Of a DNA stretch of 64,000 bases, positions 3,894-63,560 are shown in pieces. Under the pieces are notes generated by a model. The model saw only the letters and a list, made by a program, of their open reading frames with translations, searched no databases and was not told the DNA's origin. Numbering within the stretch: the stretch's first letter is position 1; every line of letters starts with the position of its first letter. The translations under genes and the position numbers were made by a program. The DNA is from Nitrospirota bacterium (lineage in GTDB: Bacteria > Nitrospinota_A > UBA7883 > JACRGQ01), in NCBI GenBank assembly GCA_024275955.1, contig JAJRYD010000003.1, forward strand, positions 10,471-74,470, in the 5' to 3' direction.

Positions 3894-3949
3894 GGGGCTG
3901 TTGCCGAATGGCACAAATTCGATTTTGCTACAAATCGACAATCTCTAAA
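3894..3949 (+). mobile_element. MITE family A, left-half fragment abutting the next copy
   Basis: GGGGCTGTTGCCGAATG...AATCTCTAAA matches the first ~56 bp of the other copies. Confidence 0.8.
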
Positions 3950-4079
3950 GGGGCTGTTGCCGAATGAGATAAATTTGATTTTTCCACAAATCGCCAATCT
4001 CTAAAACCTCTCTTTTAAAGAAGTTAGAAAATAAATTTCCCTTTTCAATGCTCAAAAAAACTCTTTTGGGAACAGTCCC
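3950..4079 (+). mobile_element. MITE family A, full copy (no TSD seen)
   Basis: Ends GGGGCTGTT / AACAGTCCC; nearly identical to 4523-4651. Confidence 0.88.
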
Positions 4080-4121
4080 TTTATCTATTTTAACCAAAAG
4101 CTAAAAAAAAGGAGCTGGCGT

Positions 4122-4514
4122 TTAGCTCCCTGTAGTAAAGCTCCATGCTATGCGGGAAAGGCTGTTGCCTGCCCTATCGGTGATAGTATCGCTAAGCGTT
4201 GCGGTATAAGTTGTGTTCGCCGTTAGGTTAGAGTCGATGGTGAATACCGCTTTCTTTTCGTCGGAGCTATACGAAACGGTTCCGGTCACGCCGTTATTTA
4301 GGCTAAACGAAGCGGCGGAAACTGTGGCGGCATCGAGCTGTTCCGAAAAGGTGGCGGTAATATCGAGACTAAGCGCCGTACCTGTTGCCAGATTTTCCGG
4401 AAATGTAGAAACAACGCTAGGGCTTTTAGTGTCGGAGCTTACGGTCAAGGTAAAGTTTCCGCATGAAACGGCAGTTAAAACAGAGAAAACCCCGAACAAA
4501 ACAAGTTTACGCAT
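4122..4514 (-). CDS. Ig-like (Big_5/SbsA-type) domain lipoprotein
   Basis: Start moved to ATG 4514 (MRKLVLFG...TAVSC lipobox); 'PSVVSTFP..ITATFSE..TYTATLS..ITDRAGN..WSFTT' Big_5 pattern; the longer 4628 start lies inside a MITE. Confidence 0.8.
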   Translation of the reverse strand: MRKLVLFGVFSVLTAVSCGNFTLTVSSDTKSPSVVSTFPENLATGTALSLDITATFSEQLDAATVSAASFSLNNGVTGTVSYSSDEKKAVFTIDSNLTANTTYTATLSDTITDRAGNSLSRIAWSFTTGS

Positions 4515-4522
4515 CACAAAAT

Positions 4523-4651
4523 GGGGCTGTTGCCGAATGGGATAAATTCGATTTTTCCGCAAATCGCCAATCTCTAAAACCTCTCTTTTAAAGAAGTTAG
4601 AAAATAAATTTCCCTTTTCAATGCTCAAAAAACTCTTTTGGAAACAGTCCC
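4523..4651 (+). mobile_element. MITE family A, full copy, TSD AAAAT
   Basis: TIR ends; AAAAT at 4518-4522 and 4652-4656. Confidence 0.92.
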
Positions 4652-4703
4652 AAAATATACTTTCGTTTTATTTTTTTTAAAGAGGTAAAATTTTATCGTC
4701 TCT

Positions 4704-6584
4704 TTACAGTTGTTCTTTTGGCAGATAAAGTTTTATCGTTTCTCTTCCGCTTTTTCCGGTTACAGCTATCGAAGCCGAGCCGCTCTTTTTAAACTTTTTC
4801 ATATTTGAACCGCTAAAGATTTTTTTTATTCTTCTTTTACCGTGCCATATCTTCGAGTCGTTTTTCCCTTTATGAAAAACGATAAGATGGGCGCTAAGCA
4901 GATTAGGCAGTTTACCTACATCGACACCGGCTCTGGCAAGCTCGGCCCTAAACGCCGGGTACACAACACGAGGAGCTGTAGAAAGCCGTGAAAGAACTAC
5001 AACGGTTCCTTTTTTAAGCTTTCCTATTTCTCCGCTCAGCTTTTTACTGCCTGCCATGTTTTGGTTTTCATCAGGATAAAATCGTCCGTTCACCTCGTCG
5101 TTTTCCGCGAAAAGCGCCAGATAGCCTTCCTCTGTATGCGCATTTTTAGAAAAATTCTTGCGCCATACAATACGGCTCTCCGCCTCTATATGGCTTTCCA
5201 GATATACGTTTTCGTAAATAACCTGATGCAGTTTTGGCGACGACTCGGCTATGAGGGTTTCACCCTCGTCAACCTTCCATTTTTGAAAATCGGCTGGATG
5301 AAAAAATCCGACTCCACCTTCTTTTAAAAGAGCGCCTATTTCATAATATGTAAACTGCGGAAGCTCCGCTAGAAGCTCCGGCTCGAGCAGTTGCGAGAGT
5401 TTTATCTTTTTTCTTTTTTTAAGTTTTTCTATGCTTTTGTCAAACTGTTTCGTCTGCTCGAAGATGTTTTTATAAACATCATACGCCTCCCTATACATTT
5501 CGGCATTTACAAGCCCCCTTGCCAGCAGAATGGCGGTTTTCTTTTTTAGCTTTTTACACTGTTTGCAGTTTAAGCTCAAAAACTGCTTCGGCAAGCCGGC
5601 CTTGCTCTTTACGATGGAGGATATTTCCAGCAGGCGGACGTAGTACTTCACCGCTTTTTGCAGATCGCCAGCTTTTATAGATGCAGAAACAACTCCAGAG
5701 AGAGCCTCCTTACTGCCGGGGTTGATACCATGCGCGCCGATGTAGCTCTTACTCGCCGCTTTATAATCGCCTGCCACTTCGTACCAGTGGGCGGTTTTCA
5801 TGTAAGAGGTGTACCAGCCGGTGTATGTCCGCCTGCCGAGAAGCGCTCTATCTATATGCTTTAGAGACAAACCATTATCGTCAATTTTCTTTTCGCGGAT
5901 TTTGAGCGCCGCGTTGTAAGGGTCTATCACCAACGCTCTTTCTATAAGCTGATGTTTGATTGATTCGTCTTCGAACTGTTCTACCTTTTCAAGGTACGAC
6001 TCGGCTAGTTCTTTAAGGTTTACGCTGTATCGAAACTCTGGAATGTAGCTTCTAGCTTCTGCTCTTTGCTCCGCGCCGGAGAGATGCACAAGGTATCTAA
6101 TATCCCACTCCAAAGCCCATACCCCGTCAACTTTTCTCCAAAACTCTTCCTGTATGGAGCTTATCGTTACCTGAGGCATCGGAGGCGGAAGAGGCTGTAC
6201 AACTTCGGATGAGACTTCTGCGAAGTTTCTGCCGGCGTTAAGCTTTATGTTTATTATCTTGTAGGCAAGATGAGTCGGCACATACCGTTTATTTAACAGT
6301 TCCTCCATAGCTCCGCCTCTTGTAGTCTCTGGAAGAAGAACGCCGTTGGGAAGATGCGGCTGAAGGATAAACTGCTTTAATGAAATTATTGATTTCAGCC
6401 TCGGTGAGAGGAAAGAGTATATTTTTTCCCAATCGTTGGCTATCTTAGCTTCAAAAAAATCTCTCTGCCTTTCAACAAGCTTTAAAACTTCCCTTCTCTC
6501 CTTTTTGGTGAGCTCCACAGCTAAGACCAGAGGAGAGGCTAAGTGGAAAAACAGCAGAAATAAAACAACGCTCTTTTTTATCAT
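4704..6584 (-). CDS. Secreted multidomain protein: NTF2-like N-terminus, TPR-like middle, degenerate ILEI/GG-like C-terminus
   Basis: Signal peptide; 'FFEAKIANDWEKIYSFLSP..FWRKVDGVW'; TPR-like 'GDLQKAVKYYVRLLE'; 'LSGEIGKLKKGTVVVLS..ELARAG..SAHLIVFHKG' resembles ILEI. Confidence 0.55.
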   Translation of the reverse strand: MIKKSVVLFLLFFHLASPLVLAVELTKKERREVLKLVERQRDFFEAKIANDWEKIYSFLSPRLKSIISLKQFILQPHLPNGVLLPETTRGGAMEELLNKRYVPTHLAYKIINIKLNAGRNFAEVSSEVVQPLPPPMPQVTISSIQEEFWRKVDGVWALEWDIRYLVHLSGAEQRAEARSYIPEFRYSVNLKELAESYLEKVEQFEDESIKHQLIERALVIDPYNAALKIREKKIDDNGLSLKHIDRALLGRRTYTGWYTSYMKTAHWYEVAGDYKAASKSYIGAHGINPGSKEALSGVVSASIKAGDLQKAVKYYVRLLEISSIVKSKAGLPKQFLSLNCKQCKKLKKKTAILLARGLVNAEMYREAYDVYKNIFEQTKQFDKSIEKLKKRKKIKLSQLLEPELLAELPQFTYYEIGALLKEGGVGFFHPADFQKWKVDEGETLIAESSPKLHQVIYENVYLESHIEAESRIVWRKNFSKNAHTEEGYLALFAENDEVNGRFYPDENQNMAGSKKLSGEIGKLKKGTVVVLSRLSTAPRVVYPAFRAELARAGVDVGKLPNLLSAHLIVFHKGKNDSKIWHGKRRIKKIFSGSNMKKFKKSGSASIAVTGKSGRETIKLYLPKEQL

Positions 6585-8062
6585 TTAAGCTTCCATATTT
6601 GATAATAGGCAATATTATCTGAATAACTATAATTTTTCGTAACCCAGTTTATCAGCAAAGGGGCGTAATGCTTTAAAGAACGTTCTTTTTTATTGTCTAT
6701 TTCTATATCGACAAGAACGACTATTCGCGGCAGTGCCTCGCTTAGCTGTTTTACCAGCTCCTTTTCCTGCGTAGAATCCTTCAGTGTGCCGGGCAGTATC
6801 CAGTCGTAATAGGTCGGGTTGTCTATACCGGCAAGGTAGTAAAAAATAGGGCCAAGAGGCGCGACGAATATCGTTTCACCTTCTTTTGTTTCGTTTTCCA
6901 GCCTAGAGGTCAGCTCCGAAACAATTCGCGCGTCCAACTCGGTAAGGTGTATCGCTTTGGCTTTGCCGTCGTTCATTCTCGCTGTCGTCTGCTTTACCGC
7001 CCCTACAGAGCCGACATAGAACCCCTTTACCATATTAAAATCTGCCAAATACAAGACGAAAACAGCCAGAAATACTGTTTCTGCCAAAGCCTTTAGGTGA
7101 GTTTTTTCGATTTTCTCTAGTACGCGGTAGGCAAGAAACGGGGCGACAATAAAAAAAAGCGGAAGGCACCGCACCAAGTTGTCGAAGCCGGCCCTTGTGG
7201 TGACAAGCGCCATGGCGCAAAACTGCAGGTACGAGAGTATCATGAGTCCCGTCCGCTTAACCCCCTCGTCCATTTTAAACGCTACGGCAAAGACTATAGG
7301 GGCCGAGATAAACGGCAGGTAAAAAAGGATATTCTCCAGAAACGCAAAAAAATCGAACTCCCTTCCCTGATAACCTTCAAAAATGGGCGGGAAACTATTC
7401 CCCCAGAGAAAAAGATCGTTCCGCATATGGAAAATAAGCTGGTCGCCATGCTTGCCGAAAAGAAAGAGACCTAATCCTACAGCGGCAAACAGTGTTATCG
7501 CCGGCAATTTCCATCTTCCGCCGTAATCCCGCCAGACAAGATAGGCATAGACCGGCAAAAAGAAGATTAGCGTTTCGGTGCGAAAGAGATAAGCGATAAA
7601 CGCCCCTGCCAAAACCAAGCCGATGTTGCGCCTGCTTTCAAGAAATGCCAGAACCGCCCAGATGTTAAAGAGAAAAACAAAGCCGTAGAACCTTTGGTAG
7701 TAGACAGCCGGAGCTGAAAGGATAAGAAGTGTCGCGGCGACAGCGAATGGAGCCGGCATTAACCTTCTTGAAATCTGAAAAGCAAGCAGAGGGAAAAAAG
7801 CTGTCAAGACTGCCAGCGACCTTCTAACGTCGACCATGTCGGAACCGACAAACCTATATATCAGTTCCACCAGCAGGTAGCGCCCTTGCGTGTACCCGAA
7901 GAAATCTGTCATTACCGATTGGCCGTTGAGGTACCTGACACCTCCGTAATAAATACCACCCTCGTCCCAAAGGTTGATACCGTAGCGGCAAAATGAAAGA
8001 TAATAGACGGCAGATAGAAAAAAGATTACCGTTCCGATAAAAAACGGCCTGCGGTAAATCAT
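6581..8062 (-). CDS. Polytopic GT-C fold glycosyltransferase (ArnT/PMT-like)
   Basis: 'NLWDEG' acidic motif after TM1, about 10 or more hydrophobic segments, soluble C-terminal domain with 'FYYLAG'. Confidence 0.7.
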   Translation of the reverse strand: MIYRRPFFIGTVIFFLSAVYYLSFCRYGINLWDEGGIYYGGVRYLNGQSVMTDFFGYTQGRYLLVELIYRFVGSDMVDVRRSLAVLTAFFPLLAFQISRRLMPAPFAVAATLLILSAPAVYYQRFYGFVFLFNIWAVLAFLESRRNIGLVLAGAFIAYLFRTETLIFFLPVYAYLVWRDYGGRWKLPAITLFAAVGLGLFLFGKHGDQLIFHMRNDLFLWGNSFPPIFEGYQGREFDFFAFLENILFYLPFISAPIVFAVAFKMDEGVKRTGLMILSYLQFCAMALVTTRAGFDNLVRCLPLFFIVAPFLAYRVLEKIEKTHLKALAETVFLAVFVLYLADFNMVKGFYVGSVGAVKQTTARMNDGKAKAIHLTELDARIVSELTSRLENETKEGETIFVAPLGPIFYYLAGIDNPTYYDWILPGTLKDSTQEKELVKQLSEALPRIVVLVDIEIDNKKERSLKHYAPLLINWVTKNYSYSDNIAYYQIWKLK

Positions 8063-8078
8063 CCGGCCTTTTTCCGGT

Positions 8079-9350
8079 TCAGTTTTTCAATAACTTTTTT
8101 GCCTTTTTCCCGGATTCTGAATCGGGAGAAAGCTTTACCGTGGTCTCATACTCTTTGCGGGCTTCTTTCTTGTTGCCTTTCTTTGAGAGTATATTTCCTT
8201 TAAGGAGGTGTAGGTCTACAAGGCCCTCTACCGCCGACTGGTCGAGCATCGCCATAGCTTTTTCGGTAAACTCTATGGAGGCCTCAAGGTCGCCTTTCGC
8301 GTAGTGTACCTTTGCTAGGTAGTAATAGTAGCTCGGCTTTTCTGCCGGCGCTTTTTTAACCCCGTCGTTGAGTACTTTAACCGCCTCGGCGTAGTTAGAG
8401 GAAGATTGCATGCTTGCATCGGCAAAGCCAGCCCTCGCTTTTGAAAAGGCAGGATTGATCTTAAACGACTTGCCAAAATGCTCAAACGCTTTTTCGTAGT
8501 TTCCCTTCTTCAGGTAATACTCTCCAAACCAGAAATGGGTAAACTCGTTTTCGGCATTCATCTGGTTTGATTTTTCAAGGTAAGGAAAGGCATCGTCCAG
8601 TCTGCCTGTAATCATCATCAGCTGGCCCAGGCTCAGATATACATAAGGGTTTTCTTTATCTAGCGATATTGATTTAAGGTAGCTTTGCTCCGCCATATCC
8701 CATATTTTCTGCTCATCAGCCCACCGGCCGTAATAGTTGTAAGCCATAGCACTCTTAGGGTTTATCGCGAGTGCTTTATCTAACGCTTCTTTTGCCTCCG
8801 GGTAATTCTCGTTTCTTGTAAGAATAACCGCGAGGCTTTCCCATGCCTGCCCAGAGCCGGACTGAAGCTCTGTCCATCTTGTCGCGCGGTTGACAGCCTT
8901 TTCCAGCAGACCGATTTTCGGATATATGTCGGAAAGTATTTTATAGTTTAAAGCGAAGTTCGGCTCCTTTTTAGCAGAAAGTTCAAAAAGCTCTACCGCC
9001 TTTTTAAGGTCTTTTTTGTGATAATAAATAACCGCTTTCCAGTGATCCAACAGGTATCTGTCACTCTTCGAGATTATCGGCTCCAGCTGGTTTAGGACGG
9101 TGAAAGCTCCGTCAAACTTTTCGAGCCGTGCCAGTGTTTCGGCCTTTAGAAAATGAGCCGGTAAATTCCGCTCAAATAGTTCTATCGCCGTTTCGGCCTC
9201 CTTGAGAGCTTTTCCCATCTGGCCGGCGTTTAGATACTCTTTGGCTATTTCAAAATGAATCTCGGAATCGAACTGTTTTTTCTCTAAAGAACCTGTACAG
9301 CCCAAAAAAAAGAGCGGGAGCAAAAGGGCAAGAATCATCCTTAACTTCAT
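8079..9350 (-). CDS. TPR-repeat lipoprotein
   Basis: FFLGC lipobox; many TPR units (e.g. AKEALDKALAINPKSAMAYNYYG). Confidence 0.85.
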   Translation of the reverse strand: MKLRMILALLLPLFFLGCTGSLEKKQFDSEIHFEIAKEYLNAGQMGKALKEAETAIELFERNLPAHFLKAETLARLEKFDGAFTVLNQLEPIISKSDRYLLDHWKAVIYYHKKDLKKAVELFELSAKKEPNFALNYKILSDIYPKIGLLEKAVNRATRWTELQSGSGQAWESLAVILTRNENYPEAKEALDKALAINPKSAMAYNYYGRWADEQKIWDMAEQSYLKSISLDKENPYVYLSLGQLMMITGRLDDAFPYLEKSNQMNAENEFTHFWFGEYYLKKGNYEKAFEHFGKSFKINPAFSKARAGFADASMQSSSNYAEAVKVLNDGVKKAPAEKPSYYYYLAKVHYAKGDLEASIEFTEKAMAMLDQSAVEGLVDLHLLKGNILSKKGNKKEARKEYETTVKLSPDSESGKKAKKLLKN

Positions 9351-9367
9351 ACTGTCTAGGATAATAC

Positions 9368-9398
9368 AAAAAAACCCCCGGCTTTTACAAGCCGGGGG
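9368..9398 (-). terminator. Rho-independent terminator
   Basis: CCCCCGGCTT-x-AAGCCGGGGG stem followed by 7 T on the minus strand, ~30 nt after the 9429 stop. Confidence 0.85.
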
Positions 9399-9428
9399 CC
9401 TAATATCGAACTAAACTATACGATAGCT

Positions 9429-10399: not shown

Positions 10400-10516
10400 G
10401 GGTTCCTCTAAAAATAAGTGATCTTCTTCATCGGTTTCGGCAATAGTACTAAATCCCCATCTATAATTCGACCAACCAAAAGTCAGAACTTTAAAAATAG
10501 ATTTTTAGAGGTTCCC
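10400..10516. mobile_element. Possible second MITE (family B), 117 bp
   Basis: 16-bp imperfect terminal inverted repeat GGGTTCCTCTAAAAAT / ATTTTTAGAGGTTCCC (2 mismatches); single copy in window. Confidence 0.5.
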
Positions 10517-11278: not shown

Positions 11279-11406
11279 GGGGGCTGTTGCCGAATGGCAT
11301 AAATTTGATTTTGTTACAAATTGCAATCTCTAAAGCCTCTATTTTTACGAAGTTAGAAAATGAACTTCTCCTTAAAACGCTTAAAAACTCTTTTGGAAAC
11401 AGTCCC
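11279..11406 (+). mobile_element. MITE family A, full copy, TSD GTAGA(G)
   Basis: GTAGA at 11274-11278 and 11407-11411; between convergent genes. Confidence 0.92.
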
Positions 11407-11422
11407 GTAGAGTCGAGTAGCT

Positions 11423-17638: not shown

Positions 17639-17861
17639 CAGCTATCCTCTCAGAGATAATTTGGTTTGCAGTATCTAACCCGCCCTTTACATCATTACTG
17701 AGTCAGCAACACTCGGCGCCTATCGGCTATGTTGTTCTCACTATGTAGATATTACCAAGTTTACTGAAGAATATGAAACCAGTGCCTCGCCCACGCTACT
17801 TGCGTGCAGGCGACAGCGATGCGCAAGCAAACTTTTAGGAAATTTTAAGCAGTTTTATTTT

Positions 17862-18029
17862 CCACCAGTGAGTACCGCCCCCACCGGCAAGGTGGTGCGC
17901 ACTGCCGGTCTGCTGTTTATCGTAGCTAGTGTCCCACCGAAGGTGGCAACGGTGCATTGATGCTAAGTTTGGGAACTTTTAGGAAACGATATCTACCACC
18001 AGTGAGTACCGCCCCCACCGGCAAGGTGG
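17862..18029. repeat. Pair of identical 34-bp REP-like palindromic units with a shorter variant between
   Basis: CCACCAGTGAGTACCGCCCCCACCGGCAAGGTGG at 17862-17895 and 17996-18029; CCACCGAAGGTGG near 17934-17946. Confidence 0.8.
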
Positions 18030-38631: not shown

Positions 38632-40485
38632 ATGCCTGAAAAGTTTACGAAAGTCCTTATTGTCGGCTCTACTGAAGATCGCTTGCGGGAAATTCTTGAG
38701 ATATTTGAAAGAATGGAGAACGGGCGGTACAACATCGACACCAGCCTAGACGAAAACTGCTCTACCCAAGGTTCGCTGGAAGGTATCAATTACGACGTTG
38801 TCATTTGCGACCACGAAACGCCAAGCATGAACAGCTTGGGGTATCTCAAATACCTTAGGTCTATCGGGTTTACCGCCCCGATACTTATGATTGTGGGTAA
38901 GCAGGACCAAAAGCTCGAATTAAAGGCAAGACAAGCCGGTGTTGACGACTTTCTGGTGAGAGATCAGGTAGAGCCGTTGCTTCTTGACCGTTCTATACGG
39001 TTTGCGATGGAGGCAAAACGGAGCAATGCCGCGCTACTCGCAAGCCATGAGCTTTATAAGGCTCTTGCCAAGTCCAGCCCTATCGGCACATGGCATACAG
39101 ACAAGGGCGGCGAAACACTTTTTATGAACCATATAATGTGCCGGATGCTCCAGATAGAAAGCCAGCAGGAAATAAGCGGGAAAACCTATCACCAGTTTTT
39201 TACAAAAGAGACTCAGAAAAAAATAGAACAAGAAAGCCGCACGCGGGCGGCAGGCACGGTGTCGAGCTATGAAGGTAAGCTGATAGGAAAAAAGGGAAGA
39301 AACCTAGATGTGCTTATTGCCGGCGGGCCTTTTATAACTTCTGACGGACAGTTCAACGGCATTATCGGAACTTTTACAGACATCACCAAAATAAAAGAAG
39401 AGGAGCTTCTCTTATCGGAGGCAAAAGAGCGGGCGGAAGAGGCCACAAAATTAAAGGATAAGTTTGTCTCTCTTGTCGCGCACGACTTGCGCGGCCCGCT
39501 TAGCACGATGCTTTCATATCTACGCCTTGTCCGCAAAGAGCAAGATTTCGATCGCTCCAAAAAAAGCGCCGAGTATATGAAAACCGCCATCAAAACAGGT
39601 CACGGCATGTTGGAGCTTATAAAAAAACTGCTCGATATCAGCCGGTTGAAAACCGGAAAGCTCCAACCGCAGATGAAATTTTTCAATCTCCGGCTACCGA
39701 TGATTAAGGTAGCTTCGGGGCTTGACTATTCGGCAGAAAAAAAAGGAATAACAATTACTAGGGAGATAGCGAAGCATTCCCGAGTGTTTGGCGACCCTGT
39801 CCTTATCGAACAGGTATTGCAAAACCTGCTTTCCAACGCGGTAAAATTCTGCGGCGATGGCGACAACGTTACGATAAACGTTCGGGAAACCGATGTTATA
39901 ACCATCTCCGTTACCGATACCGGAATAGGCATAGAGCCGGAAAGACAAAACACTATCTTTGACTACGAAGCAAAGACTTCCACTACGGGAACGGCGGGAG
40001 AGGTGGGAACCGGCCTGGGCCTTCCACTTTGCAGAGACATAATGCAGGCGCATGACGGAGAGCTGACAATGAAGTCGTCGCCCGGCAATGGCAGTAGTTT
40101 TTGCCTGACACTCCCGATTCGACATCCGCTTGTAATGGTTGTCGAAAGCGATGACGCGCACAGAAAGCTTATCGCGGCATATCTTAAAAAAATAAAGGCC
40201 GATGTAATCGAAGCAGTATCAGGTGATGAGGCGATAAGGATAATGGAAACCGATTCGCCAAGCCTTATTATTCTCGACCAGCATCTTATAGCGTCAGAGG
40301 AAGACCGCTTCATGGAAGAGGTGAGAAAAAACCCTAGCTACAGAAAAATTCCGATAGTAGCTATGACAGGGGGGGATGAAGCCGAAGCGAAAGAAAAAGA
40401 CTATGTAGCAGGCGCGAGCGACTTTATCAAAAAACCATTTGAAGAAAGTGACCTGATTCCGCTGGTACGCCTATATATAGGCTGA
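38632..40485 (+). CDS. Cytoplasmic hybrid histidine kinase REC-PAS-HisKA-HATPase-REC
   Basis: AHDLRGPL, NLLSNAVKF, DTGIG, GTGLGL; receiver domains at both ends. Confidence 0.9.
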   Translation: MPEKFTKVLIVGSTEDRLREILEIFERMENGRYNIDTSLDENCSTQGSLEGINYDVVICDHETPSMNSLGYLKYLRSIGFTAPILMIVGKQDQKLELKARQAGVDDFLVRDQVEPLLLDRSIRFAMEAKRSNAALLASHELYKALAKSSPIGTWHTDKGGETLFMNHIMCRMLQIESQQEISGKTYHQFFTKETQKKIEQESRTRAAGTVSSYEGKLIGKKGRNLDVLIAGGPFITSDGQFNGIIGTFTDITKIKEEELLLSEAKERAEEATKLKDKFVSLVAHDLRGPLSTMLSYLRLVRKEQDFDRSKKSAEYMKTAIKTGHGMLELIKKLLDISRLKTGKLQPQMKFFNLRLPMIKVASGLDYSAEKKGITITREIAKHSRVFGDPVLIEQVLQNLLSNAVKFCGDGDNVTINVRETDVITISVTDTGIGIEPERQNTIFDYEAKTSTTGTAGEVGTGLGLPLCRDIMQAHDGELTMKSSPGNGSSFCLTLPIRHPLVMVVESDDAHRKLIAAYLKKIKADVIEAVSGDEAIRIMETDSPSLIILDQHLIASEEDRFMEEVRKNPSYRKIPIVAMTGGDEAEAKEKDYVAGASDFIKKPFEESDLIPLVRLYIG

Positions 40486-40536
40486 TAAAAACAGGTCGCT
40501 TACGCTCACTGCTACCGAATTATAGTTTCCTCTGTT

Positions 40537-40665
40537 AGGGCTGTTGCCCAATGAGATAAATTTGATTTTTCTACAAATTACCAATCCCTAAAGGCTCTAT
40601 TTTTAAGAAGTAAGAAAATGAACTTCTCTTTAAAACGCTCGAAAAACTATTTTGAAAACAGCCTC
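40537..40665 (+). mobile_element. MITE family A, full copy, TSD CTGTT
   Basis: CTGTT at 40532-40536 and 40666-40670; ends AGGGCTGTT / AACAGCCTC. Confidence 0.92.
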
Positions 40666-40783
40666 CTGTTTGGTTAAAGCTGTTTGACATCAGCCGGTTC
40701 TAACGGGGAGGGACTGCTTGCCTGTTATTAAGACAAGTCAAAACCTGTAAACACTTTCCCCGATGCTTAAGCTCTATGGAACG

Positions 40784-41179
40784 CTAGTCGAGCGAGATTC
40801 CGTATTTTCTAAGCCAACCTTCGGTATCGAATTTATCTGAAAGATAGTCGAGGAATTTTTTTTCGCTTTTAGAGACCGCCCTTCCGTCTATAACCTCCGG
40901 GCTTTCCAGCTTTCTGCGTACCTTGCGTCGTTTCAACTTTTCCTGCCTAAACTCCTCCGTCTCCTCAATTTCCCCGTCACGGAATTCCGATATTTCGGCA
41001 CTCTTAATTTCCGAGAGAGAATCAAGTTTCAAAACAAAAACCATCAAGGTTTTGGCGGTTCTTTCGTCAACATTTTGGATTAGCTCGAGAGCTTGCTTAA
41101 CATCCTTTGAACCAAGGATAGCCTCGACGATAGCTCTGGAAAGCTTTTCCATATCTCTATCATGGTTCTCAGGCATCAC
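40784..41179 (-). CDS. Hypothetical cytoplasmic protein
   Basis: 131 aa ORF with GAGG SD; no recognised motif. Confidence 0.7.
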   Translation of the reverse strand: MMPENHDRDMEKLSRAIVEAILGSKDVKQALELIQNVDERTAKTLMVFVLKLDSLSEIKSAEISEFRDGEIEETEEFRQEKLKRRKVRRKLESPEVIDGRAVSKSEKKFLDYLSDKFDTEGWLRKYGISLD

Positions 41180-41328
41180 TAATAAACCCTCAATAAAAAA
41201 AATATGTCCGATTCACATATAAGCCAAGCTCCCCACCGACTGCTTACGAAGTAGTATAGCACCTTAAACGCAAAATGCGACTTGCTTAAAAGATTAAAAT
41301 GCTTTTTCCGCGTTAAAAATTATATGAG

Positions 41329-41457
41329 GGGGCTGTTGCCAAATCCGATAAATTTGATTTTGTTTAAAATTGCCAATCTCTAAAACATCTATTTTGAAGA
41401 AGTTAAAAGATGAGTCTTTCCTTCAAATACTTCAAAACCTGTTTCGGCAACAGGCCG
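41329..41457 (+). mobile_element. MITE family A, full copy, TSD ATGAG
   Basis: ATGAG at 41324-41328 and 41458-41462. Confidence 0.92.
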
Positions 41458-41594
41458 ATGAGGTAGACGTAAAAACTAAACCTAATGCAGGAAACCTCAT
41501 TAGCCTCTCCAAAGCTTTAGCATATCTGCCTGTCGTGAAGAGCTAAGAGTAACCGCTTGTTTTTAATGCCGAAAAGGAACGGATAAAAACTAGC

Positions 41595-41999
41595 CTATTT
41601 GATACCTTTTCCGGTGAGGTACGGGCCGTATTCCTTGTCGGTTTCGGCTATATGAAATTTCAGCCAGTCGAGCAAACAGTCTATGATTTCAGAATTCAAA
41701 ATTACGGCACCTGCGTTGAAATTCTTCCAATACTTTTTTACTTTTAGCGCAAGCTCCTTATGCTTCTTTTTATGCTCCTCGTAACCGGGATAGCCTGTCT
41801 CAAGCATCAGCTTTTCCTCGGCCGAGAAATGAGTGGCGGTATAGTCAAAAAGCTCGCCTAGCAGTTTGCTTTTCAGCTCTCCGCTTTTTTTATCTCTAAT
41901 TGAATTAACAACTTCACCCAATAAAACAAAAAGTTTTTTGTGCTGTGCGTCCAACGAAGGTACGCCGACCTTGTAGGAGTCGTTCCACTTTACTACCAT
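41595..41999 (-). CDS. Bacteriohemerythrin
   Basis: W...Y.VG..LD.QH, HFSAEE, HKKKH, WLKFHIAETD iron ligands. Confidence 0.93.
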   Translation of the reverse strand: MVVKWNDSYKVGVPSLDAQHKKLFVLLGEVVNSIRDKKSGELKSKLLGELFDYTATHFSAEEKLMLETGYPGYEEHKKKHKELALKVKKYWKNFNAGAVILNSEIIDCLLDWLKFHIAETDKEYGPYLTGKGIK

Positions 42000-42174
42000 A
42001 ATTCCGCCTCCTCGGTTTCAAGCAACATTTGGCCATGCTAGCATACCTCAATACAGTCAACGAGCCGTTCAAGAATAAACTTTATTTACTCAATCTCTTG
42101 GGCTTCGCGGCTTATACGCCGGCGAGAAAAATAATTATATTTCAAACCTTTGTAGCTCTAAAATCGGTTAGCAT

Positions 42175-42304
42175 GGGACTGTTTTCAAAAGAGTGTTTTT
42201 AAGCGTTTTAAAGAGAATTTCATTTTCTAACTTCGCAAGAACAGAGGCTTTAGAGATTGGCAATTTTAAACAAAATCAAATTTATACCATTCAGCAACAG
42301 CCCC
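42175..42304 (-). mobile_element. MITE family A, full copy, inverted, TSD AGCAT
   Basis: AGCAT at 42170-42174 and 42305-42309; reverse complement of the other copies. Confidence 0.92.
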
Positions 42305-42320
42305 AGCATGTAAAACTGCT

Positions 42321-44447
42321 ATGGAAAACATCGGAATAGGGAAAACATTCGGAAAAAGCAAACCGTTGCTTGGCACCATTATCATCGGGCTTGTGCTTAC
42401 CGCCTCTTTTTTCTTTTACGAAACCGGCGCGACAGCCCGCCTAAGGCTGATACTGCTTGATGCCGCCGCGAAACAGGTAAGACTTGATAAAAAAACAGCA
42501 GATAATATCGCTATTGTACTTATAGACGAAACCTCTCTACAGGCTCTAAACCCGATACTTGGAAGATGGCCCTGGCCTCGGGCCGCCTACTCCGACCTGA
42601 TGGAATTCTTCAAAATGGCGCCCCCGAAAATGGTACTCTACGATATCCTTTTCACCGAAACACAAGACCCCCGAACCGATGGACTGCTCGGTGCCAACGA
42701 TAACGCGCTTGTTTTGACCACCTTGGAGTCCGGTTTTGGTTATCACGCTATTCAGATTCTGGAGGATACCGAAGATGAATATAACAAAACCGACCTGAAC
42801 CGCCCTTTGCCGGACGATTTCATAAAAAAGTTTGCGGTACCTCTCGAAGGTTCCTCCAACTGGCTAGACTCTACAAACAACAAATACTACCTGCCGTTTA
42901 AGGAGCTTTACAACGCTTCCGCCGGTATAGGGGTGGTAGAGTTTTCGCCGGATATAGACGGCGTGTTCCGCCACACTATACCGCTTAGAAGCTATCTCGG
43001 CTCCGCTTTTCCTGTACTTGGGCTTTCTCCTTTCATTAACGGCCAAAAAGTCTCTATAAAGAAAAAGGCAGTAACGATAGGAGATAGGGAAATACCTCTG
43101 GACGATGAGGGAAAGCTTCTTATAAATGTTTACGGAAAATTCAATACCTATTCAATCAGCGGCATATTCGCTTCTTACCAAAAAATTATGAAAGGGGAAT
43201 TTGAAGATCTTATAGTCGACCCTTTGGAATTTGAAGATAAAATTGTCTATATCGGCTCCAGCGCTGTCGGCGTTGAAGATTTAAAGGCAACCTCTATGTC
43301 GCCGAACACTCCGGGAGTATTTCTGCATGCCGCTCTTTCGAGCAACTTTATTTTGGACGATTTTCTTACACCGCCGAACAAGAGTATTACCAGAATGCTT
43401 ATCGTTATCTTCGCGTTAATCTGCGTTCCCCTCCTTCTTTATCTGCCGGGATACCGCAACAAATATGGGTTCCTAATCGTGCTTTCTTTTGGTTTTTTTC
43501 TATTTTGCTATCAAAACTTTACGCAAGGCAAGGTTTACGATTTTATATCTCCTTTTTCAGCAATCTTTTTTTCCAGCCTGTTTAGTTTTGGCTACCTTCT
43601 TGTGACAGAAGGAGTGGAAAGAAGGCGGGTTAAAAAGATGTTTTCACAATATGTCTCGCCGGAGGTTCTTGACGCGGTAGCGGAGAACTACGAGAAATAC
43701 GGCTCTCTGCTTTCGGGAGGCGAAGAAGATATTACGATACTTTTTACCGACATCAGAAGTTTTACATCTTTCTCTGACAGCCACTCCGCGGACACCGTGG
43801 TAAAGATGCTCAATATCTATTTCTCGCGGATGTCGGAAATTATTTTTAAAGGGAAAGGAACCATAGATAAATTTATAGGCGACGCGATAATGGCGTTCTG
43901 GGGGGCGCCTATAAAAATGGAAAATCACCCCGATATGGCGGTCAAAACCGCTATTAATATGATAAAAGAGCTGGAGAAAATCAATGAGGAGATACAGAGC
44001 AAAGGGATAAACCACACCATCAAGATAGGATTCGGCATAAACAGCGGCTCGGCGATAGTCGGCAATATCGGCTCTGAAAGAAGGCTTAGCTACACTGTTA
44101 TAGGTGACGCGGTAAACCTGGCGGCACGGCTGGAAAGCATAACGAAGAACTGGGGGGCCGAGATAATCATCTCGGAATTTACGAGAGAAAAACTCGACCC
44201 GAAAATCCCGTGTAGAGTGATCGATAGGGTAGAAGTAAGAGGCAAAAAAGATAAAATTAAAATTTTTCAGGTATTTGTAGAGGACGATGACGAATCGAGC
44301 AGGCTGGTTAAAATAACCAACGAGGCGTATCAATTATTTGAAAATGGAGACTTTCAAAAAGCACTTGGCCTTTATGAATCAATAGATGATGGAATAATCA
44401 AAGAAGTTTTCGTCGAGAAATGCAGAAAAAAACTAAATCTGTTATAG
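42321..44447 (+). CDS. CHASE2-domain class III adenylate cyclase
   Basis: IDE.SL..GRWPWPR, DIDGVFR, PGV..HA (CHASE2); 3 TMs; FTDIRSFT, DKFIGDA, YTVIGDAVNLAARLE. Confidence 0.93.
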   Translation: MENIGIGKTFGKSKPLLGTIIIGLVLTASFFFYETGATARLRLILLDAAAKQVRLDKKTADNIAIVLIDETSLQALNPILGRWPWPRAAYSDLMEFFKMAPPKMVLYDILFTETQDPRTDGLLGANDNALVLTTLESGFGYHAIQILEDTEDEYNKTDLNRPLPDDFIKKFAVPLEGSSNWLDSTNNKYYLPFKELYNASAGIGVVEFSPDIDGVFRHTIPLRSYLGSAFPVLGLSPFINGQKVSIKKKAVTIGDREIPLDDEGKLLINVYGKFNTYSISGIFASYQKIMKGEFEDLIVDPLEFEDKIVYIGSSAVGVEDLKATSMSPNTPGVFLHAALSSNFILDDFLTPPNKSITRMLIVIFALICVPLLLYLPGYRNKYGFLIVLSFGFFLFCYQNFTQGKVYDFISPFSAIFFSSLFSFGYLLVTEGVERRRVKKMFSQYVSPEVLDAVAENYEKYGSLLSGGEEDITILFTDIRSFTSFSDSHSADTVVKMLNIYFSRMSEIIFKGKGTIDKFIGDAIMAFWGAPIKMENHPDMAVKTAINMIKELEKINEEIQSKGINHTIKIGFGINSGSAIVGNIGSERRLSYTVIGDAVNLAARLESITKNWGAEIIISEFTREKLDPKIPCRVIDRVEVRGKKDKIKIFQVFVEDDDESSRLVKITNEAYQLFENGDFQKALGLYESIDDGIIKEVFVEKCRKKLNLL

Positions 44448-47187: not shown

Positions 47188-47317
47188 GGGGGCTGTTGCC
47201 CAATGAGATAAATTTGATTTTTCTACAAATTACCAATTCCTAAAGACTCTATTTTTAAGAAGTTAGAAAATTAACTTCTCCTTAAAATGCTTTAAAAACT
47301 CTTTTGGAAATAGTCGC
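47188..47317 (+). mobile_element. MITE family A, full copy with decayed right end, TSD ATTAG
   Basis: ATTAG at 47183-47187 and 47318-47322; right end AATAGTCGC. Confidence 0.88.
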
Positions 47318-58746: not shown

Positions 58747-58751
58747 GCAGG

Positions 58752-59201: not shown

Positions 59202-59212
59202 AAACCTCCGTA

Positions 59213-59341
59213 GGGACTGTTGCCAAATCCGATAAATTTGATTTTGTTTAAAATTGCCAACCGCTCAAATATCTGTTTTGAAAAAGTTAAAGGATGAGCC
59301 TTTCCTTTTAGATGCTCAAAAACTATTTCGGCAACAGCCCT
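59213..59341 (+). mobile_element. MITE family A, full copy (no TSD seen)
   Basis: GGGACTGTTGCCAAAT...TTTCGGCAACAGCCCT. Confidence 0.88.
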
Positions 59342-59502
59342 CTAATAGGCTACTGCCGGAATTCCGCATGGTTGATAAATAACTTTCTATTCTCGTTGAG
59401 AATAGCTTTATCTACTACCTGCATATATATTCCACTCGGCTCGGCTGAACTCGCCGCGGACGGTGCCGCTTGGTGGCACCGTCTTAAAATGCAAGGCAAA
59501 AA

Positions 59503-60168
59503 CTATCGGCTTTTTTTAACATCTTTTTTTCCGCAAAACTTTTCTATTTTGCACTGCGAGCAGTGCGGTGAAACAGGCACGCAGAGGTTTTGGCCGTACG
59601 CTACGAGGATATCGTTAATTTCAATCCAATGACTCTTTGGTAAAATCTCCCTTAGCTTGAATTCTGTCTCCTGAGGGTTTTTGGTATTAACGTAGCCCCA
59701 CCTATTGGTAATTCTATGTACATGGATATCGACGCAAATACCCGGCTTGTTGAAAGCAAGAGTAATAACCAGATTTGCCGTTTTTCTGCCGACACCTTTT
59801 ATTTTAAGCAGTTCATCCAGATCGTCCGGTACTTTGCCGCGATACTCGTCGATTAGAACTTGGCTGACATGCTTTAGGGTGACAGCTTTGTTGCGGTAAA
59901 ACCCTACCGGAAAAATGAGCTTTTCCAGCTTTGACAGCGGGAGAACCGCGATTTTTTTCGGGCTATCGGCTACGGCAAAAAGCCTTCCAGATGCCTCTAG
60001 CGTTGTCTTATCTTTTGTGCGCAGTGATAAAAGGGTGGAAATAAGAACAAGGAACGGCGCGTTTTGCCTTGCGTAAATTCCGACAATCGGCTCTTTAAAC
60101 CTCTTAACCTCTTTTCGCAAAATTGCCACCACTCTGCTTATCGGGAACGATTTTTGCCCTATTGCCAT
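59503..60168 (-). CDS. nth: Endonuclease III
   Basis: HhH GVGRKTANLV, VDIHVHRI, C-x6-C-x2-C-x5-C. Confidence 0.93.
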   Translation of the reverse strand: MAIGQKSFPISRVVAILRKEVKRFKEPIVGIYARQNAPFLVLISTLLSLRTKDKTTLEASGRLFAVADSPKKIAVLPLSKLEKLIFPVGFYRNKAVTLKHVSQVLIDEYRGKVPDDLDELLKIKGVGRKTANLVITLAFNKPGICVDIHVHRITNRWGYVNTKNPQETEFKLREILPKSHWIEINDILVAYGQNLCVPVSPHCSQCKIEKFCGKKDVKKSR

Positions 60169-60260
60169 GCCTACTTTATACCGCTTTACCAAACCTGCCG
60201 CTACTAGTAGAATGGTTATCTGAAACCTATCGGCAAGAGAGGCTGTAGGAGTCTATAGAT

Positions 60261-62366
60261 ATGATGCCTAAGTATAAACAATACTTTTTTCTTCTGATCG
60301 TTTTTGTCCTCCTTTTTGGGGTAGGCGCGATATCTTTCTTTTTTTCTAAACATGCAGGCGATACCGAACAGTTTATCATCGAAAAGTTCGGTAACCAGCA
60401 GGTAAACTTTGCTAATAATATAAAAGGCAGGATAGAAAACGATTTTGAGCATATCGCTTTCTATCTTAAATTCCTTTTAATGGATAAAGCTGTTTACCAT
60501 GCTCTTGCCGATATCGCGTCAGGCCGGTCTAAAGAAAAAATAACCTCTAACGCCGATAGCCAAAATGATATTGCCGAAATGATTACCGAAATACTAGAGC
60601 ATCCTTACTATCTTTATCTCGTTATCAGCGACCGTGAGGGAAATCCCAAAGCTATCGCTTTCATGCAAGATGGCAGGCTTGTAGTTTCTGCTACAGATAA
60701 TGCCCCACCGCTTCCGCTTGCTAAACTTACACCGATGGAGAATGAGGCGGTTACTCTTCAACTCCGACAAAACTCGCTGTTGCCGGAAAGTGAAATAGCA
60801 GACCGGCTAGAGGTAATAGAGACTGTTGTGCCGCTTTACGGCAATGGCCGGCATTTAGGGTGGGCCGGAATTGGAGTCGACTTCAGCCTTGTGACAGAAA
60901 TAATTTCCAATCAGTCTGACGAAGAGAATAACCATAACTGGATTTTTGACTGGGACGGCAGTTTTATTTACTGTAGCTTTATCCCCTCCAGCGACTACCA
61001 CTCTGGTGAAATGAAACTGCTGAAAAACCTCACAGTCGGCTCTCACGAAGCTTCCACACACGAGGAAAACGGCAACGACCTGCTTTCATTTGTAAAGCTT
61101 AAGGTAGGCGAGAACCGCTGGAACATAGTAGTAGAAACAGAGCTTGAATATATGACGGGATATGTAAGAGCTTCCATCCATGTAGGGATGGCGCTTCTAA
61201 TCGTTATCCTTCTTACAGCTGTAATGGGGGTTTTCCTTCTATACAGATCGGCTATCAACCGCGATGTTGCCGAAAAAACGACACTAATACTAAACAAGGT
61301 TCAGGAATCTAAAGAGAAATACAGATCTATTTTTAACTCTACCCCTAATCCTGTTTTTCTTTTAGACGAGAGCTTTATCATTATTGATAAAAACGCGGGC
61401 GCCGCGAAAACCTTTCACCACAAAGCACAAGATCTTGCCGGTAAACCTGTTGATAAAATAATTCCAGAAATCGAAAGATACGCGGAGAATATAGGCAACG
61501 CCTCACCTCGCGTTAAAAGCACGAGATGGGATACCAGCCTTGTAAACCATTCCGGCGAGCTGATGTATTTCAGCAACTCGCTGACTATTGTTAAGGAAAA
61601 CTCTGGTATCGGCAAACTATACCTTTTGTATATGCACAATATAACCGAGCTAAAGACACTTCAAAACCAGCTTGCACAATCTGAAAAGTTGGCCTCTATA
61701 GGCGAGTTTATTGCCGGCATCGCCCATGAAATCAACAACCCGATGACCGGAATTCTTGGTTATTCAGAACTTCTTATGACAGAGGCGAAAGACTCCAGTG
61801 TTAGAGATGATGCCGGTAAGATTCATAAAGAAGCATTGAGATGCTCTCGTATAGTATCCGGCCTACTAACATTTGCCAGACAGCAAAGGGAAGAAAAAAG
61901 TATTGTCAGCATTCTTGACGCGGTAGATGCGAGCTTGGAAACAATCGGCTACGACATCGAATCCAGCAACATACAGGTTGAGAAAAAGATAGAGACTAAT
62001 TTAAAACCTGTTTACGGAAATATATTCGAGCTGGAGCAGGTAATCTTAAATATTATAAACAATGCTGTCTTCTTTCTGGAGCCGATGGACGGCGGCAAAA
62101 AAATCTGGATTACGGCACGCAGTGGTGAAGGGACGGTGGAGCTAAAGATAGAGAACAACGGTCCGCCTATAGATGATGACAAACTTGGAAAAATCTTCGA
62201 CCCGTTTTTTACTACAAAAGCTACCGGCAGAGGTACCGGCCTTGGACTCTCTATATCTTACGGAATTATACATTCGCACAAAGGAGAGCTATACGCGAAA
62301 AACGGCGACAGGGGTGTGGAGTTTAGTATCGTACTTCCGGCTGTCCGGGAAGAAACTATAAGCTAA
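60261..62366 (+). CDS. Membrane sensor histidine kinase (periplasmic domain, PAS, NtrB-like core)
   Basis: [31 protein letters not shown]. Confidence 0.9.
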
Positions 62367-63139
62367 TCCCGAATATCGTCGTCTGTATCTATGTACTTGA
62401 GCAGTTTGCCGCGCATCCGCATAACCGCTCTGGTATGAAGCTGTGAGACGCGTGACTCCGTAATGCCTAGTATCTCCCCTATCTCTTTCATGGTAAGTTC
62501 TTCGTAGTAATAGAGAGAAACCAACAGCCTTTCCTTTTCCGGAAGTTTGTCGATAGTATCGGCGATAATGGTGCGCACCTCGCTGACCCTCGCGGTAACT
62601 TGCGGATCATCATCGCTGGAGCCTGCGAGTACCTCCATAATATCCCGCTTTTCGCCATCTTTACTTACTCCGCCAAGATCTTCGACCGAAAGGATGGGAG
62701 AACTTTGTGCGCTGGCCAAAACCTTGTGAAAACCATCAAGGTCTACTCCAAGCTCCTTCGCGACCTCTTCGTCCTCTGCCGGACGGCCCTCTCTTTGTTC
62801 GACAGCGGCGTACACCGACGCAATCTCGACAGACTTTTGGCGGACAGAACGGGGAACCCAATCCATAGAACGCAGTTCGTCAAGAATCGCCCCTCTTATC
62901 CTTATTTCGGCGTAAGTCTTGAACATCGTCTGCCGGCCCGAATCGAACTTTTCGACCGCGTCGATTAAGCCCATAACTCCGGCACTCATAAGGTCGTCAA
63001 TCTCTATATGGGGAGGGAGGCGTACAGCTATTCTGTGGGAAATAAACTTGATTAAAGGTGCATACTCTTCAATCAGGCGGTCTGCTTCGGGTGTGCCGAT
63101 TTTCATCCCCGGAGTCGGCTCGGAATATATCTTTTTCAA
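62363..63139 (-). CDS. fliA: RNA polymerase sigma-28 factor
   Basis: RIRGAILDELRSMDWVPRS, LYYYEELTMKEIG, ESRVSQLH. Confidence 0.96.
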   Translation of the reverse strand: MKKIYSEPTPGMKIGTPEADRLIEEYAPLIKFISHRIAVRLPPHIEIDDLMSAGVMGLIDAVEKFDSGRQTMFKTYAEIRIRGAILDELRSMDWVPRSVRQKSVEIASVYAAVEQREGRPAEDEEVAKELGVDLDGFHKVLASAQSSPILSVEDLGGVSKDGEKRDIMEVLAGSSDDDPQVTARVSEVRTIIADTIDKLPEKERLLVSLYYYEELTMKEIGEILGITESRVSQLHTRAVMRMRGKLLKYIDTDDDIRD

Positions 63140-63450
63140 ATAACCCTCTAGTTTTTAGCAGTATAAGCTGTAAGTTCAGTAGTGTAAAGCGGTTTTGACG
63201 CGATTCTAACTGGAACAAATTAGCACTTCCCCGCCGTTTGAGTACGCATGATGTAAGCTGGAAAACTATAGGATGAGCCAGCTTAGAACATAGTGCTAGG
63301 CAAATAGAAGATAACTGTTGCTCTTGGTAACGGCTCTGATAAAGATTGACAAAGGCTATCGAAAATCAAACTAAAAATAGGTACAGTTCCATTCACTTTT
63401 GGGCTACTACTAGATGATGCGTTGACTCTAATTGCTATTAGACAAACCTC

Positions 63451-63560
63451 ATAAATTTGATTTTGTTTAAAACTGCCAACCGCTAAAATATCTACTTTAA
63501 AGAAGTTAAGAGATAAGTCTTTCCTTCAAATGCTCCAAAAACCATTTCGGCAACAGCCAC
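63451..63560 (+). mobile_element. MITE family A, left-truncated copy
   Basis: ATAAATTTGATTTTGTTTAAAA...TTTCGGCAACAGCCAC; left TIR missing. Confidence 0.82.

Follow-up and report, generated by a model that had tools for sequence, protein, structure and literature searches.

The window analysed here, a stretch of 64,000 nucleotides, spans positions 10,471 to 74,470 (forward strand) of contig JAJRYD010000003.1 from Nitrospirota bacterium (assembly GCA_024275955.1; GTDB lineage Bacteria; Nitrospinota_A; UBA7883; JACRGQ01). The assembly is a 2.45-Mb draft in 56 contigs with an estimated completeness of 98.4%. The window contains ten copies of a 129-nt repeat, of which eight are full, one is a half copy and one has a worn 5' end. 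A profile search with a 129-nt model of the family recovered all ten positions listed in a preceding reading of these letters (the sequence-only reading). In window coordinates, the copies are the following; for five of them the profile match covers slightly less than the interval given (40538–40663, 41329–41456, 47189–47315, 59213–59340 and 63441–63558).

3894..3950, plus strand: half copy (model positions 1–57), a profile match to the repeat family, head-to-tail with the copy at 3950 and without flanking duplication
3950..4079, plus strand: full copy bordered on the left by the half copy at 3894..3950; no flanking duplication
4523..4651, plus strand: full length and young, flanked by an exact 5-bp duplication
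11280..11406, plus strand: full copy; the duplication can be taken as 5 bp, which leaves an extra G to the element, or as 6 bp
40537..40665, plus strand: full copy located downstream of a hybrid histidine kinase gene and flanked by an exact 5-bp duplication
41329..41457, plus strand: full copy flanked by an exact 5-bp duplication; it belongs to the smallest subfamily, whose ends are the best inverted
42175..42304, minus strand: full copy, oppositely oriented and flanked by an exact 5-bp duplication; it lies immediately upstream of a CHASE2-cyclase gene
47189..47317, plus strand: full copy with an exact 5-bp duplication
59213..59341, plus strand: full, diverged copy without recognisable duplication
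63441..63560, plus strand: old copy whose 5' end has decayed (model positions 10–127) and whose right end can still be recognised

With at most one mismatch allowed, the terminal 12-mer of the repeat has 11 occurrences in the window; 0.27 are expected from 100 shuffles, none of which reached 11. Each of the six 5-bp flanking repeats reported in the sequence-only reading (AAAAT, GTAGA, CTGTT, ATGAG, AGCAT and ATTAG) was found again in the flank alignment, and its statement that the window lacks a transposase agrees with the scan of 61 crude ORFs, none of which carries a transposase domain. It had also placed all copies between genes; the ten copies do lie outside the crude ORFs, except that the copy at 4523–4651 overlaps a doubtful 5' extension of the ORF at 4125–4628. 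On one side of this copy is a promoter-like site (4681–4654, minus strand), and on the other, at 4513, the likely start codon of a Big_5 lipoprotein-like gene read from the minus strand. The copy differs in at most two model columns from the copy at G000:C25:83964-84092.

Genome-wide, the profile search detected 184 copies on 43 of the 56 contigs, which fits the earlier guess of hundreds per genome. They comprise 142 full-length copies, 22 cut at the 5' end, 19 cut at the 3' end and one cut at both ends, and this one family makes up about 1% of the 2.45-Mb genome. The repeat is non-coding and, at a model length of 129 nt, too short to hold a transposase gene. Its copies are dispersed among unrelated surroundings, the flanks of near-identical copies agreeing at only 4–14 of 24 positions. 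Crude ORFs contain merely 14 of the 184 copies, although the same ORF calls make 87% of the genome coding. Spacers between convergent genes are enriched for the repeat (51 of 162 classified copies, compared with 229 of 1614 intergenic spaces), and its orientation relative to the flanking genes is unbiased (47 same, 45 opposite).

The termini form inverted repeats. Compared by eye on the subfamily consensus, the left end matches the right one at 15 of the first 19 positions and at seven of the next 19 (22 of 38 in total), and in the smallest subfamily the agreement, also judged by eye, extends over 16–17 nt. A terminal stem formed in three of the four copies that were folded.

Extending the flank comparison to the whole genome revealed a large excess of 5-bp duplications. 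Directly at the model ends, 75 of the 142 full copies carry an exact 5-bp duplication, and 99 carry one when a single mismatch is allowed, whereas 2000 permutations of the left/right flank pairing gave a mean of 1.70 exact duplications and a maximum of 8. The duplication has a fixed length. Sliding both boundaries by one base reduced the 75 exact duplications to 37 and 34, and exact 8-mer duplications occurred in at most five of the 142 copies at any offset. The remaining 43 full copies have at least two mismatches in the five flank positions, which fits age and may reflect decay; decay of the duplication increases with divergence (Spearman 0.30, p 0.0003). None of the 903 pairs among these 43 copies had reciprocal flanks; thus, no inversion mediated by the repeat was seen. 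The 75 duplication sites define a palindromic, AT-rich target, Y|WTNAW|R. The word WTNAD accounts for 41% of the duplications and for 3.9% of intergenic 5-mers, with Y preceding the duplicated word in 84% and R following it in 80% of the sites. A second, unrelated repeat family of about 113 bp in this genome matches the 129-nt family in duplication length and has a similar target.

Paralogous empty sites make the duplication directly visible. Four insertions into other repeats have uninterrupted paralogues as a reference. Three of them interrupt different copies of a repeat of about 300 bp, each adding one exact 5-bp duplication relative to the uninterrupted copies, and the fourth is nested, with a duplication, in an older member of the family itself. 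Five pairs of copies are identical across all 129 model columns while their flanks are unrelated, and these identical pairs at unrelated loci indicate recent activity. A further measure of youth is given by the 33 copies that differ in at most two columns from another copy, 26 of which retain exact duplications. Over the whole family the mean pairwise identity is 80%, and the subfamilies lie 8–9% from their own consensus.

We conclude that the family is very probably a MITE (probability about 0.88): 129 bp long and non-coding, it would derive from a DDE-type transposon and be moved in trans by an enzyme with a 5-bp stagger. The view of the sequence-only reading that this is a non-autonomous inverted-repeat element is borne out by the genome-wide excess of duplications and by the paralogous empty sites. 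The element would have kept only the two enzyme-binding ends of its parent transposon. A transposase made elsewhere would bind the inverted ends of about 19 bp and join them to a target cut with a 5-bp stagger at the AT-rich palindrome, and repair of the stagger would yield the 5-bp duplication. Both the DDE chemistry and the mobilisation in trans are parts of this model that we infer, the latter because no partner enzyme was found.

The draft assembly contains no element in which MITE ends enclose a gene, and a transposase bounded by the same terminal inverted repeats, which the sequence-only reading had proposed to look for, was not found in it. A scan for the end motif with up to three mismatches gave a single inverted pair (G000:C47:10440-12380), which encloses an rlmN-like gene, lacks a duplication and is expected by chance. 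Lone end-like sites on contigs C6, C8, C9, C29 and C46 adjoin ordinary genes. End pairs 300–6000 bp apart with a 5-bp duplication numbered 34, a chance level, and the best of them fell within a threonyl-tRNA synthetase gene. When 10-nt inverted ends of any sequence were sought de novo together with a 5-bp duplication, 22 pairs emerged, also at chance level.

Profile searches of the whole genome detected no transposase of the Tn3 (PF01526), IS1595 (PF12762), IS6 (PF13610, NF033587), IS1380 or ISH3 type. The transposase genes and remnants that are present belong to the IS5, IS3, IS481-like, IS4 and IS200-like groups; the rve profile found two IS3-family elements and one IS481-like gene of 418 aa at a contig end. 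As candidate partners, the IS5 and IS3 elements have ends that differ from those of the MITE where they are readable, the right end of the IS3 family (two loci) closing in CA, unlike the MITE, and the IS4 genes are remnants. The IS1182, IS1634 and IS701 profiles gave only cross-matches to IS5-family or IS4-family remnants. On the seven contigs shorter than 8 kb, no DDE transposase was present in the 34 of 76 ORFs (at least 90 aa) that were scanned. Because the assembly is a draft, the absence of a gene from it is weak evidence.

BLAST against 30 relatives and then all 33 genomes of the phylum returned only two matches of 24–28 nt (E about 0.006–0.008), so that the family was found in none of the other 32 genomes. 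A BLAST search of plasmids returned no meaningful match. In large collections of genome contigs and metagenome contigs, the left-end pattern (61 sites in its own genome) had no match, while the right-end pattern (83 sites in its own genome) had three genome-contig and two metagenome-contig matches that share the pattern only, lie in unrelated sequence and fit chance. No partner with MITE ends was found in the collections scanned by end pattern.

The sequence-only reading had associated the ends of the MITE with IS1182, a lead that is not supported: the IS1182 model found only sub-threshold cross-matches in IS5-family genes, scoring at most 66 bits where the cut-off is 270, PF13751 picked out those loci as well, and the IS5-family element behind these cross-matches has ends that differ from those of the MITE. 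In the literature consulted, the motif in question is the one conserved at the ends of IS6/IS26 elements, and it is also close to an end from the IS1016 group. By eye, the MITE agrees with the 14-nt IS6/IS26 end consensus (PMC6807381) at 10 of 14 positions, or 11 of 14 in the smallest subfamily. The invariant G1, G2 and G7 and the nearly invariant G10 are all present, and positions 3 and 4, at which the MITE deviates, are among the most variable in the IS6/IS26 family (PMC6807381). MITEBth2 and MITEHarch3 are named as MITEs that ISfinder files under IS6/IS26 (PMC6807381). However, nearly all entries of this family with data have 8-bp duplications, in contrast to the 5 bp of the MITE, and the host has no match to the IS6-type profiles. 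Across the 33 genomes of the phylum, the search for IS6 transposases gave weak matches only, one of 29.6 bits and the rest below the cut-off.

A comparable likeness is found in ISApl4 (IS1016 group, IS1595 family), whose end is identical to that of the MITE over the first 8 nt and agrees at 10 of 14 positions overall. ISApl4 also shares with the MITE its AT-rich targets and mostly intergenic location. Its duplication is 8 bp and that of the IS1016 group 7–9 bp, compared with 5 bp in the MITE, and an IS1595-type transposase is lacking from the genome, which speaks against an IS1016 derivative. IS1595-type transposase genes occur in four of 32 genomes of the class, and in one relative of the class (G015) an IS1595-family element opens with the same 8 nt as the MITE.

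Since the ends resemble those of IS6/IS26 and IS1016 while the duplication length fits neither, the partner is probably a relative with a different stagger or a member of an undescribed group. The more specific idea of an undescribed DDE group with IS6/IS1016-like ends and a 5-bp stagger, carried on an unassembled replicon or repeat of this little-sampled phylum and possibly also moving the family of about 113 bp, is in our estimation unlikely. Under the MITE reading in general, the enzyme gene would be located on DNA missing from the 56-contig assembly, or would have been lost very recently.

The strongest competing explanation, though a rather doubtful one, is that the family is a fossil: its partner transposase would have disappeared from the lineage, and the copies would now only decay and recombine. 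A partner missing from an assembly estimated to be 98.4% complete would be expected in that case, as would the mean pairwise identity of only 80% and the distance of 8–9% between subfamily members and their consensus. It is countered by the five identical pairs and the 33 copies within two differences, which lie at unrelated loci with mostly intact duplications, and by the fact that draft assemblies often lack multi-copy insertion sequences.

We consider it distinctly less probable that the repeat derives from the Tn3 family, as do the TIMEs of Pseudomonas, and that its transposase is a large replicative enzyme of Tn3 type encoded on an unbinned plasmid. Tn3-family ends start with a run of G, and so does the MITE. 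The genome lacks a Tn3 transposase domain, however, and 184 copies on one chromosome are ill-suited to the target immunity known for many members of the Tn3 family. In their published description, TIMEs are 262 bp long, occur on plasmids and are moved in trans. TIMEs and Tn3-family transposons have 38-bp ends identical at 29–30 of 38 positions and produce 5-bp (sometimes 6-bp) duplications in AT-rich DNA. The MITE shares with TIMEs, so described, the miniature size, non-coding nature and AT-rich 5-bp duplication, but it differs in its length of 129 bp, its 184 chromosomal copies and its ends of about 19 bp, in which agreement falls from 15 of 19 to seven of 19 positions where TIMEs maintain it over 38 bp.

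A functional host repeat spread by recombination, whether a structured element of the REP or ERIC type, a terminator, a promoter or a small RNA, would suit the intergenic location and the enrichment between convergent genes, but is hardly credible given the transposition signatures of fixed-length duplications, empty paralogous sites and a nested insertion, and given the unbiased orientation. The RNA analyses argue in the same direction, and the RNA family for which the sequence-only reading had left room did not appear. Rfam gave no match at gathering score in the window and none at E up to 1 over 40400–42400; consensus folding with RNAalifold gave 0.0 and −0.9 kcal/mol, hence no conserved structure, and the z-scores of single-copy folds ranged from −0.5 to −2.6. 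No promoter-like or terminator-like site was present inside the six window copies scanned (five full copies and the half copy).

As a MITE, the element is of a well-known kind. Classical bacterial MITEs, among them the Correia elements of Neisseria, are small, non-coding, bounded by inverted ends, present in up to hundreds of copies and mostly intergenic (PMC4133298), and the present family resembles them in each of these respects. It differs in that Correia-type elements are usually flanked by a TA dinucleotide (PMC4133298), whereas the 129-bp family duplicates 5 bp, and in that its sequence is unmatched outside its own genome. The family itself was seen nowhere else in the searches made.

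Apart from the mismatch between ends and duplication, the family is ordinary bacterial mobile DNA; the combination of an end type known from 8-bp-duplicating families with a 5-bp duplication is the one feature that could lead to novelty. It occurs in a phylum represented by only 33 species-level genomes in the set used, and some of its copies appear to have moved recently. The family could serve as a strain marker, and its copies are likely to break contigs and to alter the expression of genes; one young copy lies between a promoter-like site and a start codon. The family also hints at an active transposase not seen in current assemblies or profile libraries.

We conclude that the 129-nt element is a real, high-copy and recently active family of MITEs, which inserts with a 5-bp stagger at a defined palindromic target. 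A repeat search of the window returned two direct-repeat families, one of about 124-130 nt (eight copies) and a shorter one of 56 nt that covers the left arm (nine copies), together with a single inverted copy. Alignment of the copies with their flanks gave a unit of about 129 nt, at either side of which the likeness ends abruptly. The ten window copies located by the sequence-only reading were all recovered with a 129-column profile, built from 151 copies in the assembly (2,452,406 bases, 56 contigs, 45.9% G+C), and 11 occurrences of the terminal 12-mer were counted in the window, where 0.27 would be expected. The whole assembly contained 184 profile matches on 43 contigs, including 15 on the contig of the window, 10 of them within the window. 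Full-length matches numbered 142, while 22 were cut at the 5' end, 19 at the 3' end and one at both. In two places, a full copy is joined head to tail to a partial one, consisting of the left half or left third, and neither pair has a duplication around it; deletion after nesting, or slippage, may have produced them.

Fused pairs (G000, source assembly; C, its contigs)
Window 3894-4079: head-to-tail pair
G000:C28:8699-8861: head-to-tail pair

The duplications at the flanks are genuine, with a length of 5 bp. The same 5-mer stood on either flank at the model ends in 75 of the 142 full copies, and 24, 16, 11, 13 and 3 copies had one, two, three, four and five mismatches, respectively. The exact count fell to 37 or 34 when both boundaries were shifted by one base, and longer flank words dropped fast (at most 37 copies for 6-mers and at most 5 for 8-mers). 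Because the targets are AT-rich, left and right flanks were permuted among copies as a chance control; over 2000 permutations, 1.70 matches arose on average and 8 at most. The six duplications originally listed for window copies are all present in the flank alignment.

Paralogous empty sites are provided by a repeat of about 300 bp, three copies of which are interrupted by the 129-nt element, and by a nested insertion in which a younger copy splits an older one with a 5-bp duplication. In each interrupted repeat, the 5-mer that flanks the insert twice occurs once in uninterrupted copies.

Insertions of the 129-nt element
G000:C23:18104-18231: in the ~300-bp repeat
G000:C13:42112-42240: in the ~300-bp repeat, in opposite orientation and one base from the C23 site
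G000:C11:49303-49431: in the ~300-bp repeat
G000:C29:59795-60056: nested, in an older copy of the family

The target is two-fold symmetric. At the 75 intact sites, a pyrimidine precedes the duplication in 84% and a purine follows it in 80%, and the duplication itself reads W, T (69%), N, A (69%), W/D; WTNAD fits 41% of the duplications against 3.9% of intergenic 5-mers.

The full copies form three subfamilies of 71, 40 and 11 copies, the other 20 falling into small groups or standing single. Mean pairwise identity is 80%, and copies lie 8-9% from their own subfamily consensus. In five cases, two copies at unrelated loci match at all 129 model columns and carry different duplications. At most two differences separate 33 copies from some other copy, and 26 of these 33 retain exact duplications. 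Duplication decay rises with divergence (rho 0.30, p 0.0003). Taken together, the divergence, the near-identical pairs and this correlation show that the family is old, yet has moved recently.

Location was scored on a crude set of 2173 ORFs, by which 87% of the genome is coding. By these, 92 of the 184 matches lie between tandem genes, 51 between convergent and 19 between divergent genes, compared with 1133, 229 and 252 such intergenic spaces in the background; 14 fall within ORFs, chiefly short doubtful ones, and eight at contig edges. Copies are thus over-represented at gene 3' ends and somewhat under-represented in divergent promoter regions. Of the copies between tandem genes, 47 share the orientation of these genes and 45 oppose it, an even split. 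The young window copy at 4523-4651 sits in the leader of a gene whose product carries a Big_5 domain and a lipoprotein-like signal peptide. On one side of the copy is the likely start codon (4513, minus strand), on the other a promoter-like site (4681-4654, minus strand).

That the repeat is instead a structured RNA or signal element was rejected. The copies had no Rfam family match, the sole gathering-score match in the window being a tRNA, and a permissive search across three copies found nothing. Apart from a terminal stem, single copies fold weakly (z -0.5 to -2.6). The consensus fold of 137 distinct copies by RNAalifold came to 0.0 and -0.9 kcal/mol for the two strands, and no promoter-like or terminator-like sites were found within six scanned copies (five full copies and the half copy).

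The genome holds further repeats. The inverted ends of the ~300-bp repeat, which has at least 15 genomic copies, are those of an IS5-family element, and it therefore represents a second MITE with a recognisable partner. Another miniature element, unrelated to the 129-nt one, is about 113-116 bp long, and its 11 copies are 94-100% alike. It has inverted repeats of its own (15-16 nt, opening with a run of G), and its duplications, 5 (possibly 6) bp in length, fall at T-rich words ending in AG, a target similar to that of the 129-nt element. Two of its copies lie within 129-nt copies. Its window copy, 80 bp upstream of tRNA-His, has one mismatch in the duplication.

Other repeats
G000:C6:139-438, C1:11231-11531, C33:78457-78760 and at least 12 more: ~300-bp repeat (none in the window)
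Window 10401-10516 (G000:C25:20871-20986): ~113-bp element
G000:C11:20796-20930, C1:24666-24792, C13:41643-41775 and others: further copies of the ~113-bp element
G000:C35:31323-31352: 30-nt perfect match to the left end of the ~113-bp element, beside a start codon
Window 17834-17895 and 17968-18029: a pair of direct repeats of 62 nt (84% alike) with a G+C-rich terminal hairpin; weaker relatives at at least three other loci (C32, C42, C6, C41)
G000:C29:1-335 and C49:1-287: tandem repeats of a 131-bp unit at contig ends, 99% alike, probably a single unresolved array linking both contigs

MITEs are well known as a kind, but this family is new. By BLAST, the 129-nt element was absent from 30 relatives and from plasmids, and had no credible match in the 32 other genomes of the phylum compared. 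The left-end pattern (61 sites in the source genome) had zero matches in 185,579 species representatives and JGI metagenome contigs, and the five collection matches to the right-end pattern (83 sites) were to the pattern only, in unrelated sequence; such scans may omit the source genome's own records. Among the papers searched, the terminal 12-mer occurred in two, both unrelated (one about human globin, the other about a Salmonella effector).

A genome-wide check for a transposase bounded by the same terminal inverted repeats, by motif searches of the assembly for such ends at a longer spacing, returned only chance-level pairs, as did a de novo search that accepted any inverted ends flanked by a 5-bp duplication. 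With transposase profiles run against all contigs, there was no match for Tn3, IS1595, IS6 (two models), IS1380 or ISH3, and only cross-hits for IS1182, IS1634 and IS701; the IS1182 link suggested in the sequence-only reading is unsupported. An IS4-family transposase is present as a 126-aa remnant, and IS200-like fragments were identified by eye at contig ends. The IS5-family element, of which there are several broken copies, most of them at contig ends, was rejected as partner, since its own ends differ. The IS3 family is represented by two elements, one of which has contributed a fragment that is inserted in a 129-nt copy. The 3' end of this IS3-family element abuts model position 59 (G000:C12:8499-8867), so that it either entered a MITE or cut one short. 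An rve-domain gene of 418 aa, intact (G000:C11:81076-82332), stops 20 bases short of a contig end and is positioned immediately upstream of a flagellin gene; it is only distantly IS481-like or IS3-like, at 56 and 37 bits, far below the cut-offs. No DDE transposase was found among 34 scanned of 76 ORFs on small contigs. Genes on small contigs include one for a 545-aa large serine recombinase, which has a tyrosine integrase fragment as its neighbour, another for a tyrosine integrase, and one for a HigB-like toxin paired with an HTH protein (G000:C17:3536-5682, C36:5634-6452 and C19:390-991). They may be traces of a mobile element that is integrated or was left unbinned. Draft assemblies often lose multi-copy elements, and the absence of a partner from this draft (estimated 98.4% complete) is therefore weak evidence.

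The ends resemble those of two known families. The end motif first linked to IS1182 is, in two Staphylococcus papers, that of IS257 and IS1216, members of the IS6/IS26 family. In Harmer and Hall (PMC6807381), a 14-nt consensus from 65 shorter bacterial members has G at positions 1, 2 and 7 in all but one member and a highly conserved G at 10, with 3 and 4 the most variable; nearly all entries with data have 8-bp duplications. Compared by eye with our subfamily consensus, the left end agrees at 10 of these 14 positions (11 in the smallest subfamily) and keeps all four G, two of the disagreements being at positions 3 and 4. Likewise, the end of ISApl4 (IS1016 group, IS1595 family; PMC12561309) agrees at 10 of 14, the first eight consecutively, and its duplications are AT-rich and 8 bp long. 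An IS1595-family element in a relative of the same class starts with the same 8 nt. The likeness therefore leads to families that duplicate 8 bp, whereas the 129-nt element duplicates 5 bp. Tn3 is a family that combines G-run ends with 5-bp AT-rich duplications. Its miniature derivatives (TIMEs) have 38-bp ends identical at 29-30 of 38 positions (PMC4133298), unlike the two ends of the 129-nt element, which by eye agree at 15 of the first 19 and only 7 of the next 19 positions.

The 129-nt family is so far limited to a single species, in a phylum that is sparsely sampled, and is without a partner enzyme in the draft assembly. It is unusual in one respect only: its IS6/IS1016-like ends are paired with a duplication of 5 bp. 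This pairing, together with the like duplication and target of the ~113-bp family, points to an unseen transposase that is worth seeking.
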